Shown piece after piece: positions 1-58,949 of a stretch of 64,000 nucleotides of DNA. The DNA comes from Eledone cirrhosa (Eukaryota), in the NCBI GenBank assembly GCA_964016885.1, contig OZ024745.1, positions 101,370,001 through 101,434,000 on the forward strand. The letters are read 5' to 3'. The notes under the pieces were generated by a model. It ran no database searches, was not told the origin of the DNA, and saw only the letters and a list, made by a program, of their open reading frames with translations. The stretch's first letter is position 1. Each line of letters starts with the position of its first letter. The position numbers were made by a program, and so were the translations under genes.

Positions 1-101
<101 letters not shown>

Positions 102-213
102 GATAAAAATACTTGATTATTTACAGTATAAGATATAGCTCAATGTTATCAAACAGAGCCGAAAAATTACATAAAATTAACAAAGAAGCCTTTAATACAT
201 TAAAAATCTTTAT

Positions 214-258
214 TTCCTGACAATGTTTCGTCCCATTAATTAGGACTCATCAGAGCAA
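214..258 (-). ncRNA. Minimal type I hammerhead ribozyme motif (Penelope-like pLTR type)
   Basis: Minus strand reads TTGCT-CTGATGA-GTCC(TAATTAATG)GGAC-GAAAC-ATT-GTC-AGGAA. The inverted partial copy at 693-754 has AGCAA, which restores stem I. Confidence 0.8.
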
Positions 259-993
259 GGAAAAAGACAAGAAATATCATCGGCTAGAACAAGCCAAAAT
301 TCAGAAGAATAGCGAATGGATATTTAGGAATATTTAGGAAAATTATCATGGAAAGATATGTTAAACCTAATAGGGTGCATTTGTAAATAAAAACTATAGG
401 GCAAGAGAGCAAGCAAACATTAAACAAACCCACGTTAAAAGTACAATATAAGTCTAATACTTGAAATACAACATAGTAATATAATGCGAGAAATAAGATA
501 TAAAATTTATAATATAATATACAATACAATACAATACATAATACAGAAATAAAATATAATATATATATATATCTACACGCACTCCGACACATATATATAC
601 ACACACATACACATCTACACATACACATACACATATACACATATACACATATACACATACACATATACACATCTACACATACACATACACATAAACATTG
701 TCAGCAAATAAAGATTTTTAATGTATTAAAGGCTTCTTTGTTAATTTTATGTAATATATATATATATATATATATATAGGTAAGTATGTATGTATACGTA
801 CATACATATATGTATACAGACGTACAGTAGTATGTATATATTTACATACATGCACACATATATACATGCACGTATCGGTTTACCGAACATTTATTATAAT
901 GCTCGGTTTGTTTGTTTGTAAACAAACAGCTCGAATTACGCCGTACAGTGTTTAGGCAACCACGTCACCTTTTTGTTCAACACTGACACAGGA

Positions 994-1036
994 ACGATGT
1001 ACTAGTTTCAAGCTTATTAGCTATCGTCAGCATCAT
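994..1036 (-). ncRNA. Minimal hammerhead ribozyme motif
   Basis: Minus strand reads ATGATG-CTGACGA-T-AGCT(AATA)AGCT-T-GAAAC-TA-GTA-CATCGT. Confidence 0.85.
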
Positions 1037-1507
1037 ATACCTTCCTGCCAGATGGTTGAACGTCTGAAAGTATATACTTTCCTTATGCATATTAACGGCT
1101 GAGCAGCCTAATTTGCATATCGAGTGAGTTCAGTCGGCCGGGCAAACCGAACGGCGTAATCCGGGCTGTTTGTTTGTTTGTTTGTTTACAAACAAACAAA
1201 CCGAGAATTATAATAACTGTTCGGTAAACCGATACGTGCATATATATGTGTGCATGTATGTATATATATACATACTACTGTACGTCTGTATACATATATG
1301 TATGTACGTATACATACATACTTACATTTAAGTAAGTGCCGTACTAAGAGTGAGAAATGAAATTTCGTTTCATTCTATTCCATTTATCGTTTTCCGGTGT
1401 GCCCGGCCGACTGAACTCACTCGATATGCAAATTAGGCTGCTCAGCCGTTAATATGCATAAGGAAAGTATATACTTACAGACGTTCAATCATCTGGCAGG
1501 AAGGTAT

Positions 1508-1550
1508 ACGGTGCTGACGATAGCTAATAAGCTTGAAACTAGTACATCGT
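1508..1550 (+). ncRNA. Minimal hammerhead ribozyme motif
   Basis: ACGGTG-CTGACGA-T-AGCT(AATA)AGCT-T-GAAAC-TA-GTA-CATCGT. It has a 6-bp stem I, a palindromic stem III (ACTAGT) and predicted cleavage after 1544. Confidence 0.88.
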
Positions 1551-1863
1551 TCCTGTGTCAGTGTTGAACAAAAGGGCAACGATGGTTGCTAGACACTTCG
1601 GCTTAATTCGGGATGTTTGTTTACAAACAAACCGAGCATTATAATAAATGTTCGGTAAACCCATACGTATATATATATATGTGTGTGCATGTATGTATAT
1701 ACATACTACTTTACGTCTGTATACATATATGTATGTACGTATACATATTTATATTTAGGTATCAGCCGTACTAAGAGTGAGAAATGAAATTTCGTTTCAT
1801 TTTTTCCATTTATATATATATATTATATATATATATATTATATATATATATTATATATATATA

Positions 1864-1963
<100 letters not shown>

Positions 1964-1988
1964 TAATATATATATATTATATATTATA

Positions 1989-2019
<31 letters not shown>

Positions 2020-3162: not shown

Positions 3163-3476
3163 GTCTTTAATGCGCCGAAACATCTGAGACCCACAACAGA
3201 CAACTGATGAGGGGAACTGTCCATGTCAATGTTTGTGTTTCCTTTACTTTCTAAACACTCTTTATTAGTAACCACGCAGCACTTTTTCCCTTTCAATATA
3301 TATCCATATATATATATATATATATATAAAAATTAAAATACTAGAGTGCGTTGGAGTAAAACACACTCGTCATATTATAGAAATGACAGTATAGGATATA
3401 GCTCAATGTAATACAACAGAGCCGAAAAATTATAAAAATAGACAAAGAAACCTTCAATATATCAAAAAGTCTTTAT

Positions 3477-3518
3477 TAGCCTACAATGTTTCGTCCCATT
3501 AAGGACTCATCAGGGCAA
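3477..3518 (-). ncRNA. Minimal hammerhead ribozyme motif (same family as 214-258)
   Basis: Minus strand reads TTGCC-CTGATGA-GTCC(TTAATG)GGAC-GAAAC-ATT-GTA-GGCTA. It lies within the 3429-3608 fold-back. Confidence 0.8.
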
Positions 3519-3601
3519 TAATATATATAATATATTGCCCTGATGAGTCCATTGTAGGCTAATAAAGACTTTTGATGTATTGAAGGCTTCTTTGTCTATT
3601 T

Positions 3602-3646
<45 letters not shown>

Positions 3647-10118: not shown

Positions 10119-10354
10119 CGTATATATATATAGATAGATTGATAGATAGATGTATTTAATTTGTTGGATTTCCGACGAACATAAATGTTTATAACTGATT
10201 TAGAGCACTCAACAAATTGCTGGTTCTTTTTTCAATTATTTACACATTCATTTGCATATTCACACATAACTTTTAATGTTCCACTATCCAGTGAATTTCC
10301 GACCGATAAGGTGTGATTTCCATGGGTACGTCTTTATTTATAAAACAAAGTTTG

Positions 10355-10419
10355 TATTTTATCTGATGAAAGCGCACCAAGGTAGGCTTGGTTGCCCTTG
10401 AAATATATATAATAAAATA
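10355..10419 (+). ncRNA. Minimal hammerhead ribozyme motif (TATTTTAT family)
   Basis: TATTTTAT-CTGATGA-[AAGCGCACCAAG GTAGG CTTGGTTGCCCTT]-GAAA-T-ATAT-A-TA-ATAAAATA, with an 8-bp stem I. Confidence 0.85.
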
Positions 10420-10491
10420 AATATGGTTTTATAAATATAGTTTCCATTTATTTAATATCATGGTATATATATATATATATATATATATATT

Positions 10492-10531
10492 ACGAGCTGA
10501 GGATCCGCTAAGGTGAAACAATTGTTCTCGG
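10492..10531 (+). ncRNA. Minimal hammerhead ribozyme motif
   Basis: CGAG-CTGAGGA-T-CC(GCTAA)GG-T-GAAAC-AATT-GTT-CTCG. Confidence 0.78.
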
Positions 10532-10714
10532 TATGGTGAACTAACTGTTGTGTAACCACTTCTATATATATATACATATATATATATAGGCTTAAAAATA
10601 GGAAGAAAGCAAGAAAGCAGACAACTGATGAGGAAAACTACTCCCGTTCTTGCTTTCTTCTTATTTTTAAGCCTGCCTTATCTAGCAACAACGCAGCCAC
10701 TTCTATTCTTCATA

Positions 10715-13155: not shown

Positions 13156-13213
13156 ATACCTGATGATATCACCGGATTCATACGGAACCCGGTCATTGAA
13201 ATGATCATAGTAT
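13156..13213 (+). ncRNA. Minimal hammerhead ribozyme motif
   Basis: ATAC-CTGATGA-T-[ATCACCGG..CCGGTCAT]-T-GAAA-T-GATC-A-TA-GTAT with a palindromic GATC loop. Followed by AATAAA and a short fold-back at ~13236-13312. Confidence 0.85.
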
Positions 13214-13528
13214 AATAAACCTTTCAAGGATTTAATTTACACAAATCCAGCCTCCTGTCATTTCATTATATTATATATAATGAAATGACAGGAGGCTGGA
13301 TTTGTGTAAATTTATTTATAACAGATTCGAAGCACTCGACAAGTTTTCTGGAATATAATATGAATGATATTAATAAATGGAAACTATATTTATAAAACCA
13401 TCGTCCCTTTACGATCTGAGTTCAAACCCCGCCGAGGTTGACTTTGCCTTTCATCCTTACGGGGTCGATAAAATAAAGTACCAGTAATGCACTAGGATAA
13501 TTGATGGCCTTGTGCCAAAAGTAGAAAC

Positions 13529-13579
<51 letters not shown>

Positions 13580-13623
13580 TCAATGATATTAATAAATGGA
13601 AACTATGTTTATAAAAACATATT

Positions 13624-13684
13624 TATTTTATTATATATATTTCAAGAGTACCAACGTTTTGGTATGCGCTCATCAGATAAAATA
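13624..13684 (-). ncRNA. Minimal hammerhead ribozyme motif (left arm of palindrome)
   Basis: Reverse complement of 13808-13868. Confidence 0.78.
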
Positions 13685-13807
13685 CAAAATTTGTTTAATA
13701 AATGTTGCCATACCCAAGAAACCAGACCTTATCGGTTCAGTTTGATTGAACCTGAACCGATAGGGTCTGGTTTCTTGGGTATGTCAACATTTATAAAACA
13801 AATTTTG

Positions 13808-13868
13808 TATTTTATCTGATGAGCGCATACCAAAACGTTGGTACTCTTGAAATATATATAATAAAATA
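13808..13868 (+). ncRNA. Minimal hammerhead ribozyme motif (TATTTTAT family)
   Basis: TATTTTAT-CTGATGA-[GCGCATACCAA AACG TTGGTACTCTT]-GAAA-T-ATAT-A-TA-ATAAAATA. The base of stem II is imperfect. Confidence 0.78.
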
Positions 13869-13999
13869 AATATGGTTTTATAAATATAGTTTCCATTTAT
13901 TAATATCATTCATATTATATTCCAGAAAACTTGTAGAGTGCTTCGAATCTGTTATAAATAAATTTGTTGAATAACCAACAAATTAAATATCTCTTTGCT

Positions 14000-14153: not shown

Positions 14154-14288
<135 letters not shown>

Positions 14289-14300
14289 GTGTGTGTGTGT

Positions 14301-14931
14301 GTAGGTAGGAGTTCCCTTGAAAAGTTGGCTTGCCTCACAACAATGTTGGATCCCTATGATGTAGGATTGTTGCATACTGACCAGCGAAACTGTACAGTCG
14401 GGACATTGAGGAAAAAATAGGTATATATCTGTGTCTATTACTTCTTACTTTATAATTTATTAAATATATATATATACATACATATATATATATATATAAT
14501 ATAATTGTTTCTACTTTAGGCACAAGGCCAGCAATTACCCAGTGCATTACTGGTACTTTATTTTATCGACCCCGTAAGGATGAAAAGCAAAGTCAACCTC
14601 GGCGGGATTTGAACTCAGATCGTAAAGGGACGTAACTATGCTGGAAAGCATGGCGCCCGACCCTCTACCGATATATTATAATATATATATAATATATATA
14701 TAATATATATATAATATATATATATATAATATATATATATATTATATATATATATGTATATATATATTTAACAAATTATAAAGTAAGAAGAAGTAATAGA
14801 AACAGATATATACCTATTTTTTCTTCAATGTCCCGACTGTACAGTTTCGCTGGTCAGTATGCAACAATCCTACATCATAGGGATCCAACATTGTTGTGAG
14901 GCAAGCCAACCTTTCAAGGGAACTCCTACCT

Positions 14932-14935
<4 letters not shown>
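14301..14935. repeat. Inverted repeat (arms ~14301-14465 and ~14768-14935) with a SINE A copy and TA tract between
   Basis: GTAGGTAGGAGTTCCCTTGAAA... versus ...TTTCAAGGGAACTCCTACCTAC. SINE A lies at 14502-14672 on the minus strand. Confidence 0.9.
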
Positions 14936-14966
<31 letters not shown>

Positions 14967-14968
<2 letters not shown>

Positions 14969-15603
14969 AATGGAAAAGAATGAAACGAAATTTCATTTCT
15001 CACTCATAGTACGGCTGATACTTAAATGTAAGTAAGTATGTATACGTACATACATATATGTGTACAGATGTACAGTAGTATGTATATATATACATACATG
15101 CACACATATATATATGTACGTAGGGGTTTACCGAACATTTATTATAATGTTCGGTTTGTTTGTAAACAAACAGCCCGAATTACTCCGTACAGTATTCAGG
15201 CAACCATCGCCTTTTTGTTCAACACTGACACAGGAACGATGTACTAGTTTCAAGCTTATTAGCTATCGTCAGCTTCGTACACCTTCCTGCCAGATGATTG
15301 AACGTCTGAAAGTATATACTTTCCTTATGCATATTAACGGCTGAGCAGCCTAATTTGCATATCGAGTGAGTTAGTCGGCCGGGCGCACCGAAAACGATAA
15401 ATGGAAAAAGAATGAAACGAAATTTCATTTCTCACTCTTAGTACGGCTGATACCTAAATATAAGTATGTATGTACACGTACATACATATATGTATACAGA
15501 CGTACAGTAGTATGTATATATATACATACATACACACATATATATATATGTACGTATGGGTTTACCGAACATTTATTATAATGTTCCGTTTGTTTGTAAA
15601 CAA
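14967..15603 (-). mobile_element. Second locus of the ~430-nt HHR monomer repeat (~1.5 tandem units)
   Basis: AAATGGAAAAGAATGAAACGAAATTTCATTTCTCACTC occurs at ~14968 and ~15398. High similarity to 780-1812. Confidence 0.85.
15236..15278 (-). ncRNA. Minimal hammerhead ribozyme motif
   Basis: Minus strand reads ACGAAG-CTGACGA-TAGCTAATAAGCTT-GAAAC-TA-GTA-CATCGT, with one stem I mismatch. Confidence 0.8.
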
Positions 15604-15937
15604 ATGTGGTAAGTTGGGTAATTGAAAATTTCGAAATATTTCTCACAGGTGGCGTGATAAATACGTCAGACCTTCAATTTGCTATGTTAATAATTCAATC
15701 AGCAGTTGTTGTTGTTGTTTTTCAAGCTGAAAGGAATAAAGTATATAATTATATGTAACTTGGAATAGATACTTTAAAGGTTTATTTGGATAGGAATACA
15801 CTTTATATTCGGTGGTTAAGAGTGCTCGGCTATCTGTCTTGATTTTGATGCAGTCAGCTCAATAATAATAATTTTGTACTCTTTTGTTTTCATCATATCT
15901 TCATTCGGACGAAGCTTTATATTATGTTACGTATAAT

Positions 15938-19553: not shown

Positions 19554-21538
19554 AGGAAGGAGTCAATGAAGGTTTTCTTTTTAGGGAAGAGCCGTCTTCT
19601 GACGGTTTCAGATCGATATATCGGCTCCCCCCACCCTCACAAACATACATTCGTCCGAGGGACTTCAGCACAGTTTCCGTTTACTAAATTTCACTCACAA
19701 GGTTTTGTTCGATCCGAAAGTATGGTAGAAGACATTTGCCCACGGTGCTATGCAGTGGTGTCAAAAGTGGAGCCAGGTAGTTACGGAGTAAATTTCTTAA
19801 TCACAAGACAGTGTAAATATTTCTTTATGAAATTGTTGAAGATTGCTGCTTAATGCTTTCAATGCCAACCAGTCTGAGATCGTTATATCGAACTGTTCAA
19901 ATTTAAATATAAATTTCAATTGAAATTTTATTATTAAATTTATGATAAAAGCGGCACCTCAGAATCAGTAAAAAATACCATGCGATATTTAATTAAATCC
20001 CTTCACTTTCTGGCCTTTTCCCAATGCAAACGGGAGCTTATCTTGTGCACCTTTTAGACCTCAGTAGGTATGCATCGCTCGTCAATAGCCCATTACTGAG
20101 CAGCCAGCTGAAGCACCAGGCACATTATCATATCAATCCTAATACTAGAACTGCACTTATTGATCCTGGGAGGGTGATAAACAGTCGACTTGGGTTAAAT
20201 TTGAACTCAAAACGATAAGATTTATAACTAAATAGCACTAGACATTTTGTCTGACGATTCTGCCAGTCCATCGCCTTTCTGTCTCTGAGTTATAATCCCA
20301 CTGGTGGAGGACTTTGCCTTTCATTCCCTTGGGTTGATAATGCAAATTTTAGAAATAATTATTGCACCCATGGTAAAGTATATCAGTGTAAACTTGTATT
20401 TTATTGTATTTCAAATACCACCAAAGTGGAAACCTCTTTGCCTTAACTGAAACCTTTTTCATTTATTGGTTTCGGCTAGAGAAAAGACTTGTGTCCATGA
20501 CCTTCGCAGATCCTCTTACACCAGTGAGATCGACTCTTGGAAATTGGCAAATAACAGCTAAATTTCCCTAAAATCGCACTCTAAAAAAGTTAGATGTTGA
20601 ACAATGTAGTCGTCCTAGATACAGTGTCTGTAAAAACAGACAAACAAACAAACAAAACAAGATGTCTTGAATTCGTTTGCTTAATCCGAAGCTAGCTAAA
20701 CAACTCAAAAAGTTACGAAACACCATCAATTTCTTAGTTACTTTGAAAATAAAATTAGACACATAAGCAATGTACAGTAATGAATAATGTTAGGATATTT
20801 ATTTTCTCTAAAGAATATGTAGTCAGGAAATATATTTACGCCTTGATTTCAGCCTTAATCTAAAATTTCAACAGATTTGCATGTTAATCTTTTAGAATAC
20901 TATATTTAGAAACTAGTTTACCGTGCTATCAAAAGATGACAGATTTTTAAATGTCTTTGAGACGAAATTTCCTTTTCATAATAATTTTTTGATATTTCTC
21001 TAATTTCCCTTTAGATTTTGACAGTTTAATTTGAGCTTTCTTTCCACTACTTTATATTTTATATTTTTAAGAATTATATCATGTAGTCAAAACGAAATAC
21101 ACACATACATACAAAAAATGATTATGACACACCTACTATGTATGATGTCGTCACGCTCAGCTTGTGTAGGCAGAGGAGTTGCAACACTATACCTAGCCCA
21201 GCACGTCATTATAGGTTTTGAGAGTAATAAAAAGTAATTCTTAAATTTAACCCTCCTTTGACACTTCTATTTCAATTTATAGCATAAAAATGGATGCAAT
21301 GGCACTATTCAACTCATACAGTTCTAGTTCGAATAGATATAATAGAAAATTCTATATTAAAGTTAAAAAACATACATTATACTGTATATATATATATTAT
21401 ATATTATATTATATTATATTATATTATATTATATTATATTATATTAGTAGAACACTGGTGGGTTATATCCATAGTAGATCACTCAGTCCAAGGGACGAGT
21501 TTGGTAGAAGTAGTTCCACAACAGTTAGTTCACCATTT

Positions 21539-21579
21539 TCGAGAACAATTGTTTCACCTTAGTCAGATCATCAGCTTGG
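21539..21579 (-). ncRNA. Minimal hammerhead motif (left arm of palindrome)
   Basis: Minus strand reads CCAAG-CTGATGA-TCTGACTAAGGT-GAAAC-AATT-GTT-CTCGA. Confidence 0.68.
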
Positions 21580-21665
21580 TTTAAATGAGATTATACGGAA
21601 AAGGAAAAACAATTATAAAAATATTTATATAATTGTTTTTCCATTTCCGTATAATCTCATTTAAA

Positions 21666-21706
21666 CCAAGCTGATGATCTGAGTAAGGTGAAACAATTGT
21701 TCTCGG
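21666..21706 (+). ncRNA. Minimal hammerhead motif (family of 10492-10531)
   Basis: CCAAG-CTGATGA-TCTGAGTAAGGT-GAAAC-AATT-GTT-CTCGG. Confidence 0.7.
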
Positions 21707-22493
21707 AAATGGTGAATTAAATGTTGTGGAACTACTATATATATATATTATATATATAGTTAACTTATAATCGTTAACATATCTATCATTAGTTTTGTAT
21801 CAGTTTTTCCAGACTTGGCTGAGACTCTTTCAGTCAGCGCCACAGTGAAAAATTTTGCTAGGCAGCCTATTTTTGGACAATAATGGGCAGGGTTTGATGG
21901 GACCTTCTCAAAATTCAAGAGGCCGATAGAACATTTTTTTCATGGGCTTATTTAAACTAATGTTTCCAATTGAAGTTTAGTCTTATATGTGTTGTCTTCA
22001 GCACAGCTTTTTGCTATCTCGTGAGGTTTGGCATTCTCAGATCAAATTTACCATTTTTCATGTTTTCCTCTTCTGCAAAATTCTTCCACTTTTATCACTT
22101 GACACTTCTTTACCCAACTGTCATCCTTCCTACGCATTGTTGGACAAAATGCCTTGAGGTATTTAGTTACAGCTTTTATATTTTAAGTTTAAATCCTACT
22201 GATTGTGACTTTCGCTCTCCCCCAGAATTTAGGAACTTGTGCCTAAGTCAGAAGTTATAATTATTATTATCAAAAGGGTGATGGATTGTCAACATTAGTA
22301 GTATTAGGATAAAATGCTTTATGGCATTTGGTTGTGTCTCTTCACTTTTTCAGGTCAAATGCTGTGAATTCTTTATAGTATAATTATTCTGAGTTCAAAT
22401 TCTATATATATATATATATATATGGAATTTGAACTCAGAATAATTATACTATAAAGCATTCATAAAGCATATATATATATATATATAATATAA

Positions 22494-26638: not shown

Positions 26639-26868
26639 CTGTGTGTGTGTCTATATATATTTCCAAACCCATGCAAGCGTGGAACATGGACGTTAAACGA
26701 TGATGACGTTATATATATATATATATAAATATAACCAAAGATTAATATGGTTCATTGATTACTCAATGCATATAGTTTTACAATAGATTAAAAGCACTCT
26801 ACAATGGTTTTCTGGGGTTATTATTATTCATAATAATAATAAATGAAGACATTCACATAATCAAAATA

Positions 26869-26935
26869 TATTTTATTATATATATTTCGAAGGTACTGTG
26901 CTGTTTTTTTCAGTACGTCCTCGTCAGATAAAATA
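26869..26935 (-). ncRNA. Minimal hammerhead ribozyme motif (TATTTTAT family)
   Basis: Minus strand reads TATTTTAT-CTGACGA-[GGACGTACTG..CAGTACCTTC]-GAAA-T-ATAT-A-TA-ATAAAATA. Confidence 0.83.
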
Positions 26936-27342
26936 CATGAATTGATGTATGACATACCTCAACGGTCTTGATAGTACAATTCCAGTATTGACTGCCAATA
27001 CTGGAATTGAACTATCAAGACAGTTGTGGTATGTCATACATCAATTCATGTATTTTATCTGACGACGACGTACTGAAAAAAACCCATATATTTTGATTAT
27101 GTGAATGTCTTCATTTATTATTATTCTGAATAAAAGTATATATATATATATATAGATACGATATTAACAAATGGAAACTATATTTATAAAACCATATTTA
27201 TTTCATTATACATATTTCAAGGACACCAAGTTAAATTATGGTGAAGTTCCTGGATAGTCACAACTATCCAGGAGCTTCCAACAGTAATGGTTGCATTTTT
27301 AAAGTGTATGTCAATATTTATTTATAAAACTGATCTATATTA

Positions 27343-27407
27343 TATTTTATCTGATGAAAGCACACCATAATTTAACTTGGCGTCCTTGAAATATGTATAA
27401 TGAAATA
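27343..27407 (+). ncRNA. Minimal hammerhead ribozyme motif (TATTTTAT family)
   Basis: TATTTTAT-CTGATGA-[AAGCACACCA..TGGCGTCCTT]-GAAA-T-ATGT-A-TA-ATGAAATA. An inverted partial arm lies at 27157-27243. Confidence 0.78.
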
Positions 27408-27595
27408 AATATGGTTTTATAAATATAGTTTCCATTTGTTAATATCGTATTTTTACTCCAAATATTTGTTGAGTGCTTTATATCAGTTATAAAAATATTT
27501 AAATAGAACAATTTAAATAGAACTTTTACATATATATATATATATATAAGTCAAATATGTAAAATTTGGCTTCGTTTATTACAAATTATAGATAT

Positions 27596-29533: not shown

Positions 29534-29694
29534 CACATACACATACACATACATGCAAGTATCTATGTATGTATAATTTTAAACAATAGTATCTATGCAT
29601 GGACATATGTATAAGTATGTGTTGCAATAGGAGTCGATCGAGGCAGGAGTAGGAGTGGTGAGTGTGTAGGGGCGTGGTTTACCTTAGGCTCGGT

Positions 29695-31305
29695 AACGGA
29701 CCTGGTTGGGCTCTTCCTGCTGAAGCAGATAAAGGAAGAAATCCCCTGCCTGGGCGGCGGATTATATCGTGACGATGCTCTATTCACAGTCTATGACAAC
29801 AGCACCACTATGGTGGAATGAAGAGGAGAATTAGGCATTTCTTTAAGAACCATGGGCTTAGTATTGAACTAGACCCAAATAGAAAGGTAGTCAACTTCCT
29901 AGAGACCACCCTAAACCTGAGCAATGAGCAATACTACCCCTATCACAAGCCCAACGAGAAACTGGTATATGTTAACGCCAAGTCAAACCACCCTAGATCC
30001 ATAATTAAGGCCGTAGTGAAGAGTGTCTCGGACAGGATCTCCAGCCTGTCCGCCAATAAGGAGATCTTCGATAGCAACTCAGAGTATTACAACACAGCTC
30101 TAAATATGGCGGCGCATGGACAAAATATATATTATAATCCGAGGCGCCATGATAAGGATAGCCCATCGGACCTCCCCGACCCACGGTATCCGGGAAGGGG
30201 GGGGGGACCCTAACAGTACAGGCAGAGTGGAAACCACTAACCCCCATGAACCCGACACCACCACATTAGCGAAAAGGACGAGTACGCCTAGCCATAGGAG
30301 GAAACTCAGCACGAGTAGCGGTCTCAGGGGTGATACTAACCACCCAGTGGCCCGACGCCCCCAACCGCGACGGATGGAGGATCATCCCATGGTAGAACTC
30401 CCAGCGTGAGCAACAACCACCCCACAGGTATGGGCCGGGAAGCTAGCAAAACACATAGCGCCCAAAGGGGAAGCAACAATGCGGGAGCCACTAGCAACCC
30501 AACAACTCCCCACAGCACGCTCAATCCACCCATAGGAATAGACGTAGAAAAATCACATGGTACAACCCACCCTACTCAGCGGTCCTAAAGAACACCCTGG
30601 CCCGGTCATTCTTTAGAGCACTAGATAAATGCTTCCCAAGGGACCATAGATACCACAAGATCTTCAACAGACACACTGTGAAGCTCTCGTATTCTACCAC
30701 ACGCAACGTAGCCCAGCACATATCGGTAGACTTAGAAACTACACACAACAATCAGTGGCAATATAAGCACCCAGCAGAACCATGTGGAGGGAAGGAAGGG
30801 TGGACCCGGTACCCACCCCATGAACCCAAACAGACCCAGGGAACCCCACCCTATAATACGCAATGGGAACCCCACATTAGGCACTCAGGGGTCGACCACC
30901 TCCTGCAACTGCAGAACCCCCACATTATTCCCCCTTAGTAATGAATGCCTAAGAAAGAACTTAATATACGGATGTAGAGAAGAAACCCCCAAGTCTGAAC
31001 ACCTTTACATAGGAGCCACATCAACGAGCTTCAAAGACCGATGGTATAACCATCGCCATTCCTTTAATAGGGAGGACAAAAGGAAAAGTACGGCTCTTTC
31101 TGAACTGATCTGGAAGCTCAAGCTGGACAGGTCCCTGTACTCTCTGGCCTGGTCCCAAATCAGGAAAGTACCACCTGATAGAGGGGGATCTGGCATCTGC
31201 AAACTATGTCTGAGCGAGACCCTCAAGATACTCAGCGGTGGAAGCAGCCTAATAAACCTAAGGGCCGACTTCTTTGGTAGACACCTCAAGCTATATGGAC
31301 AATAA
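29695..31305 (+). pseudogene. Frameshifted Penelope-like RT plus GIY-YIG endonuclease
   Basis: DLVGLFLL..GLYRDD (YRDD at 29765-29776); VNFLETTLNL..PYHKPN..YVNAKSNHP; RKITWYNPPYS..HKIFNRHTVKLSYS (~30546-30700); CNCR..C..LIY..YIGATSTSFKDRWYNHRHSF..CKLCLSE. Confidence 0.92.
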
Positions 31306-58373: not shown

Positions 58374-58949
58374 TAAACCCGTTAGCATTTAAACCAGCCA
58401 GAATTTTCTCACCTGTTTCTGTTCTAACCGGCCATAACTGGACACTCATACTGATGTTAAAGTATTGTTCTCAAAATAAATAATATCAAAATGTCATAGA
58501 TTCGATATTATGTGAGATAAATATGTGAGGTAAAGCCTTAACCATGAAAATATAATAGTAAATATAGAGCTTCTGAGTCTGAGTCTGATAGAGTAATCAT
58601 CATCATCATCATCATTTCATTTTACGTCCACTTTTCCCTGCTTGCAAGGGTGGGACGGGAACTGATTCTGGCTTGATTTCTACAGCTGGATGCCCTTCCT
58701 AACACCAACCTCATTTACAGTCAGTGCTGGGTGCTTTTTTGCCGTGGCACCTCCACGACCACTTTGCAGTGGAATGATATGGACCCCAGTCCCTATCATC
58801 TCATTTCTACAGCTGAGTAAACTGGAGCAATGTGAAATAAAGTGTCTTGCTCAAGGAAACAACACATCACCCGATCTGAGAATTGAACTCACAACCTTTC
58901 GATTGCAAGGCCAATGCTCTAACCACTAAGCCAAATGCTAAAGGGTTAA
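58374..58949. mobile_element. piggyBac-like MITE with a nested SINE B (58597-58932, minus strand)
   Basis: AACCCGTTAGCATTT ... AAATGCTAAAGGG|TTAA. The SINE interrupts next to the right TIR. Confidence 0.75.

Follow-up and report, generated by a model that had tools for sequence, protein, structure and literature searches.

Animal non-LTR retrozymes have been described from coral, Mytilus (350-390 bp) and axolotl (330/350 bp), with circular RNAs and ribozyme cleavage shown and mobilization by Penelope-like elements (PLEs) proposed (Cervera and de la Pena, 2020, PMC7229834). Vertebrate retrozymes are reported as non-autonomous PLE derivatives, and eight of nine Xenopus retrozyme dimers did not cleave (Li, Clavereau and Pollet, bioRxiv 10.64898/2026.07.22.740005). 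In both papers the proposals of PLE mobilization draw on co-occurrence and phylogeny, and the mechanism is left open. The canonical animal type I hammerhead works as a dimer (PMC4209133). Among PLEs themselves, the Poseidon element PAc of Anolis has two internal starts, extends both strands and takes unprocessed RNA as its substrate (Frangieh, 2024, PMC11167929), and Neptune, Nematis and Naiad elements show one-sided tails, inversions and a (TA)n bias (Craig, 2021, PMC8557442). Finally, newt satellite 2 is reported to have an internal snRNA-type promoter, as cited in PMC2220036.

Here we analyse a 64,000-nt stretch of the Eledone cirrhosa genome (contig OZ024745.1; hereafter the window) in which two loci carry a ~430-bp unit. 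This unit is an animal non-LTR retrozyme, a class already published, and we put at roughly 80% the probability that it is a non-coding retrozyme with a predicted hammerhead that is inserted into TA microsatellites by the reverse transcriptase/endonuclease of a PLE acting in trans. As a sequence class the unit is ordinary; its insertion footprints are unusually clear. Both the class and its PLE link have been published, and what is added here is a count of how the insertion ends are paired. The literature searched, a scope outside which subscription journals, Repbase/Dfam and supplements fell, held no description of this family or of an end-pairing count in retrozymes. The features are listed below by window position.

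754..778 (no strand): (TA)n target at the left end of locus 1
780-1149 (-): inverted arm of locus 1, covering unit positions of about 15-377; its 3' end is of the short type and meets (TA)n
994..1036 (-): hammerhead carried by this arm, core start 1030, predicted cut after 1000
1179-1811 (+): tandem of locus 1, about 1.5 head-to-tail units, period 426
1151..1385 (+): partial unit truncated at its 5' end, whose start BLAST places at 1179 and inspection by eye near 1151
1381..1811 (+): full 431-bp unit, taken as reference and numbered q1-431
1426..1433 (+): octamer ATGCAAAT, a possible promoter element retained in a sister family
1483..1569 (+): hammerhead of type I whose helix I is extended, from motif, folding and covariation
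1753..1757 (+): site of the short 3' ends in this family (q about 373-377), with TAT/TATAT microhomology with TA repeats
1758..1811 (+): 54-bp 'tail', an optional segment containing the hairpin GAAATGAAATTTCGTTTC at 1781-1798; the long 3' end is 1811
1811..2019 (no strand): (TA)n target at the right end of locus 1
14968-15604 (-): locus 2, about 1.5 units, period 431, long end into (TA)n, one hammerhead

At locus 1 the inverted arm and the tandem units are joined head to head with (TA)n flanking each side, and locus 2 is 90.4% identical to locus 1 across 647 bp. The original prediction, made from the letters of the window, had described a ~427-431-bp unit in about 1.5 tandem copies at two loci, a common end base running into (TA)n and an inverted 5' arm at the first locus, all of which was borne out by the periods and coordinates listed above and by the ends of both loci, which read TTCCATTT before (TA)n. 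It had also named the junction between units the monomer junction. The junction is indeed shared by both loci (CCATTTATCGTTTT), but it corresponds to the long start of reverse transcription, and an RNA monomer end would fall at 1544/1545 instead. The inverted arm terminates at another fixed site, which lies some 54 bases upstream, and the partial unit at 1151..1385 shares its subtype with this arm (96.6%). Across 700-1900 the longest ATG-initiated ORF has 57 aa and is mostly microsatellite, leaving no meaningful ORF, and the octamer ATGCAAAT may be a promoter element. The window copies are probably inert insertions; each has one ribozyme per strand and therefore no monomer release would be possible.

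Other repeats lie close to these loci. The left (TA)n of locus 1 also serves as 3' tail to a different repeat with a hammerhead-like motif (CTGATGAGTCC...GGACGAAAC), which is found at 99-258 (-), 693-755 (+), 3386-3613 and 42403, so that the left arm of locus 1 is inserted in its TA tail. Its copies at 99-755 are arranged as an inverted pair that runs into (TA)n through a long end on one side and a short end on the other. Yet another hammerhead family (TTTTATCTGA.GA...GAAATATATATA^ATAAAATA) occurs at 10336-10490, 13308-13965 and 26860-27548, often as inverted pairs, and likewise has TTTCCATTTAT before (TA)n at its 3' end. More hammerhead-like motifs were seen at 10495-10560, 21509-21736 and 13160-13201, with similar ones downstream of the PLE ORF at L033, and an inverted repeat (14281-14505 / 14726-14952, 94%) that adjoins locus 2 has the hammerhead-like core CTATGA in both arms. 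A ~190-bp dispersed repeat occupies 14464-14673 and many other places, with more than 10 copies in the window, and a weak tRNA match at 58875-58934 (-), from an Rfam gathering scan, is possibly a SINE head. The sampled loci contain many more hammerhead types, and at L061 and L165 another hammerhead-bearing repeat, tandem with a period near 310 bp, is probably a third retrozyme family.

In the reference hammerhead, stem I is formed by ACGGTG (1508-1513) and CATCGT (1545-1550), the core is CTGACGA (1514-1520), helix II is a U.U pair plus AGCU/AGCU with an AAUA loop and is followed by GAAA (1535-1538), and helix III is the palindrome ACUAGU, with the predicted cut after GUA at 1544. In the alignment fold helix I runs via an internal loop into a long stem. 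Cores in the window loci lie at 1514(+), 1030(-) and 15272(-), the cut of the inverted arm being placed by homologous position. One hammerhead per tandem had been foreseen and is present, but the one at locus 2, described as well-formed, has an A.A mismatch in stem I. An Rfam scan of the window at gathering score made no hammerhead call, and identification came from motif, folding and covariation. In a set of 44 copies selected by an exact core match, the sole variable helix I pair outside that core was U.G in 20, A-U in 11, G.U in eight, C-G in one, U-A in one and broken in three. The cleavage triplet of the non-A class, taken from the first 30 of 1,783 copies without a preceding A, was GTT in 25, GTC in two and another triplet in three; rates of core conservation are circular where loci were chosen by an intact core. 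As judged from these alignments, ribozyme pairing and the cleavage triplet are maintained across subfamilies. Self-cleavage after 1544 is predicted, with an activity that may be low because helix II opens with a U.U pair and helix III is minimal; helix III copies pair with one another at -6.8 kcal/mol.

The genome-wide check that had been suggested for the monomer revealed a large family with multimer arrays and fixed 3' ends. Exact matches to the post-cleavage 25-mer number at least 26,677 (24,894 + 1,783) in the 3.0-Gb genome, and a 32-nt core variant has at least 9,756, both counts being lower bounds. The reversed control of the core variant has none, and these matches are not due to chance. 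Copies are spread over many contigs with TA-joined or truncated ends and no LTR structure, and take two forms, dispersed insertions of 1-2.5 units or ORF-less arrays of >20 units. Examples of the arrays are L121, where 23 unit matches fill 10 kb, L122 with 22 and L128 with 17, none of which contained a PLE tblastn match. Consecutive ribozyme-bearing units are present in these three arrays and absent from the two window loci; among 65 dispersed insertions, taken from the window and from 58 loci at the beginning of contig 1, eight have at least two same-strand cores. Monomers measure 429-442 nt with a GC content of 0.36-0.39, and the earlier assignment of the ORF-less monomer to a retrozyme-type element is thus supported by its type I hammerhead and its short, low-GC tandem unit. 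A sister family of 469-475 nt (L165, L166, L050, L073, L197), 62% identical in full-length alignment, retains the TTTATCG junction, ATGCAAAT, the ACTAGT helix III, the tail hairpin and both end sites, and its predicted circular fold has a z of -12 to -14. Family variants also occur in contigs of four runs (X1, X4, X5, X6; organisms A, B and C), the kind of which is unrecorded and which are uninformative on expression, strand and circularity. A strict alternation of A and B subtypes was rejected, most loci having one subtype.

The ends of the insertions carry the main evidence for how the family spreads. The 3' ends cluster at q412-431 (long) or q360-386 (short), two sites 54 bases apart. The 203 sequences gave 201 clusters, of which 124 were classed after dropping L001-L032, overlapping duplicates, clusters of <150 bp and clusters touching a locus edge. 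Two 3' ends were present in 61 of these 124 insertions, as long plus short in 44, long plus long in one, short plus short in one and with one atypical end in 15. The long plus short arrangement therefore accounts for 44 of the 46 inverted insertions with typical ends (p 1.5e-11 versus 50%), in a sample that was partly chosen by tail and so is biased toward long ends but not toward pairing. Single-ended insertions ended long in 34 cases, short in 23 and elsewhere in six. TA repeats abut the long end in 76 of 85 cases and the short end in 73 of 79, the latter count being partly self-fulfilling because the short end sits in TA-like sequence. Other microsatellites follow six long ends, some of them (TC)n with the end shifted to the matching stretch. 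The longer, internal (TA)n tract seldom serves as an end, and it is therefore likely that structure, not microhomology alone, sets the two sites. Target-site duplications are unreadable because the copies sit inside (TA)n. The 5' ends are scattered, and none of 30 loci starts at the ribozyme cut, in a test that misses truncations after A or shifted by a few bases; this is the fair test, as a second count (0/108 5' ends at q160-170) is biased by loci chosen for an intact core. Retrotransposition is indicated by 3' ends that are fixed, 5' ends that vary, inversions whose end types are paired and targets in microsatellites, and the fixed sites and TA counts also support the earlier proposal of priming at TA microsatellites with PLE-like ends.

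Resident PLEs show comparable ends. A first look at the genome gave 38,634 PLE reverse transcriptase candidates, of which 150 were scored, and some have open frames of 630-719 aa. Atlas look-alikes of the PLE ORF are HTH_animal, GIY-YIG and RVT_1; a Pfam search with this ORF gave no match, and the PDB nothing useful. Its Cys-rich linker is compatible with Neptune or Nematis elements (PMC8557442). L163-L172 carry PLE ORFs that are nearly intact and reach 719 aa, which suggests recent activity. The window itself has a broken, GC-rich PLE remnant at 29678-31260 (+) with reverse transcriptase, Cys linker and endonuclease pieces. The L163-family PLE has its own terminal repeat and ribozyme, which differ from those of the unit, and has two end sites, some 80 bp from each other, that both run into (TA)n, with one end of each type in four of the five loci listing both orientations; its long end, ATACTTAT followed by ATA, is the same as the short end of the unit. 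Direct joints between the unit and the ORF of this PLE occur at L031, L147 and L161, where the PLE does not resume on the far side, matching what template switching would give. Chimeras were found in two of 39 protein-picked L163-family loci (seed excluded) and the unit lay inside the ORF in none of 56 loci of two other PLE families, where it lay >1 kb beyond in three, a difference that is not significant and not like for like. At L055 the unit is joined to a different PLE family in inverted orientation, and the joints point only weakly to a particular partner. In its countable footprints (two starts, the long/short rule, TA targeting and few chimeras) the unit thus matches an autonomous PLE of the same genome.

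Because its ends, tail and inversions resemble those of PLEs, the unit might instead be the orphan pLTR of an unsampled autonomous PLE, with the tandems as by-products, a reading that we regard as improbable. Three PLE families (L163, L055 and L039) were sampled, with the terminal repeat visible in the first two; neither of these termini is the unit, their ribozymes differ from its own, and no sampled PLE was found to share its sequence. Searching PLE termini for the tail hairpin yielded only the sister retrozyme. Genome-wide the tail continues into the next unit in 2,037 cases, ATA in 1,972 and G/T in 175, a survey that omitted C-not-GTTTT and A-not-TA continuations. The 30 G/T cases examined comprise 16 decayed junctions, 11 TA-like ends and three unrelated flanks, and no other sequence shared after the tail was found in any of them. 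These counts argue against an orphan pLTR, as do the 6-bp helix I and short helix II of the unit compared with the long-helix-II ribozymes of resident PLEs (PMC4209133). That the unit would prove to be only a pLTR lacking ORF-less multimers had been named in advance as the outcome against the original prediction, and this failed, L121, L122 and L128 being such multimers with tails that run into the next unit or TA. Spread at the DNA level as a satellite, through unequal crossover or extrachromosomal circles and with the ribozyme as a relic, is less probable still. The higher-order structure of long arrays (L122, L123) would agree with it, as would a five-unit insertion of alternating identical units (422/420 bp) at L057:2727-4873, which reflects either dimer duplication or a dimeric circular template. 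However, duplication accounts for array growth only, and the end pattern, microsatellite targeting and conserved ribozyme pairing and triplet described above all stand against it.

A rival that bears on the template, rolling-circle reverse transcription of a single self-cleaved and ligated monomer circle as the main insertion source, which is the published retrozyme model, is unlikely. The lack of starts at the cut in 30 loci indicates a template that is uncut or re-ligated, and natural monomers taken cut to cut have stable predicted circular folds (z -5.1 to -9.6; seven monomers, 25 shuffles each), a stability owed in part to a palindromic TA/CA tract. The sequence of a ligated circle junction is the same as that of the tandem DNA junction. 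Units within an insertion are 4.5-4.8% apart versus 7.9% for random copies, tandem partners rank among the closest 3-5% of copies, and 18 of 57 tandem pairs (L002-L030, L033-L090 and the window) have no difference at any common variant site, all of which a monomer circle would accommodate. In contrast, 23 of the 57 pairs have at least two common-allele non-CpG differences, private variants shared within tandems number seven (four in L057) versus 231 rare differences, and at locus 1 the terminal and upstream units differ in subtype. Neighbouring units are thus often unlike each other, which speaks against a single monomer circle as the only template and indicates that multimers of mixed units, or switches between templates, occur.

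We therefore favour mobilization in trans by a PLE, which could proceed as follows. Transcription of multi-unit loci would come first, possibly driven by an internal promoter that contains the octamer, after which tandem ribozymes would pair through their palindromic helix III, cut after 1544 and release a ~430-nt monomer that may be ligated to a circle, as in published retrozymes. A PLE protein, the presumed enzyme, would bind the tail region and cut the (TA)n targets that we observe. Reverse transcription would begin at one of the two fixed internal sites, aided by 3-5 bases of TAT microhomology. Both target strands would be extended, one from the long site and one from the short, which would produce the observed pairing, and the two truncated cDNAs would then join head to head. 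The absence of 5' ends at the cut suggests that copying traverses the ribozyme site on templates that would be uncut multimers, perhaps circles, and some loci probably became arrays later through local duplication. A more speculative version, which we hold to be doubtful, is an octamer-promoted, ribozyme-closed ~430-nt circle on which a PLE reverse transcriptase dimer would prime both strands of a cut TA repeat, using two structure-defined sites of a single RNA, one for each strand. If true, it would be the first direct mechanism of animal retrozyme integration and would explain the one-sided tail of PLEs. The shortness of the RNA, PLE ORFs that are nearly intact and an in vitro assay already in print make both trans-mobilization and templating by circles versus multimers directly testable.

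Set against the published work, the unit agrees with the retrozymes of PMC7229834 in its short ORF-less tandem units, its GC below 45% (36-39% here), its type I hammerhead with a weak palindromic helix III, its stable predicted circular fold and the presence of PLEs in the genome, and it shares a U.U pair at the base of helix II with axolotl HHR_Amex2. It differs in that its 429-442-nt monomer sits at the long end of the range, in that circular RNA and cleavage were demonstrated there and are predictions here, and in its two fixed ends and paired inversions, which the portions of PMC7229834 consulted do not describe. Its ribozyme has the canonical animal type I form of PMC4209133. As in vertebrate retrozymes (bioRxiv 10.64898/2026.07.22.740005), monomers are dispersed, multimers are clustered, PLEs co-occur and mobilization by PLE enzymes is proposed. 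Xenopus retrozymes have sequence kinship to pLTRs, whereas here no homologous pLTR was found among the PLE families sampled and the link runs through end structure and chimeras, and by the criterion of that study (two consecutive complete ribozymes) the window copies are inactive.

Tandem hammerhead repeats with a dimer-type ribozyme are also found in newt satellite 2 (PMC2220036), where the promoter is reported, whereas the octamer of the unit is a putative one. Non-autonomous Chlamys elements such as MRC1 (PMC8557442) are, like the unit, ORF-less PLE dependants, with pLTRs and head-to-tail multicopy insertions, but they are algal, share 3' sequence with autonomous families and mostly have no hammerheads. 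With regard to PLEs (PMC11167929, PMC8557442), the unit has no ORF, its ribozyme is canonical and not PLE-type, and its tail is 54 bp versus 30-40 in PLEs; its starts use 3-5-nt microhomology whereas those of PAc occur without homology, and in vitro the start sites of PAc did not differ between strands (PMC11167929), in contrast to the long/short pairing here. The likenesses to PLEs (PMC11167929, PMC8557442) comprise two internal starts of reverse transcription that yield an optional tail, the cutting and extension of both strands, targets that are AT-rich or (TA)n, partial tandems, inverted arms truncated at the 5' end, a tail that is often one-sided and an unprocessed RNA template.
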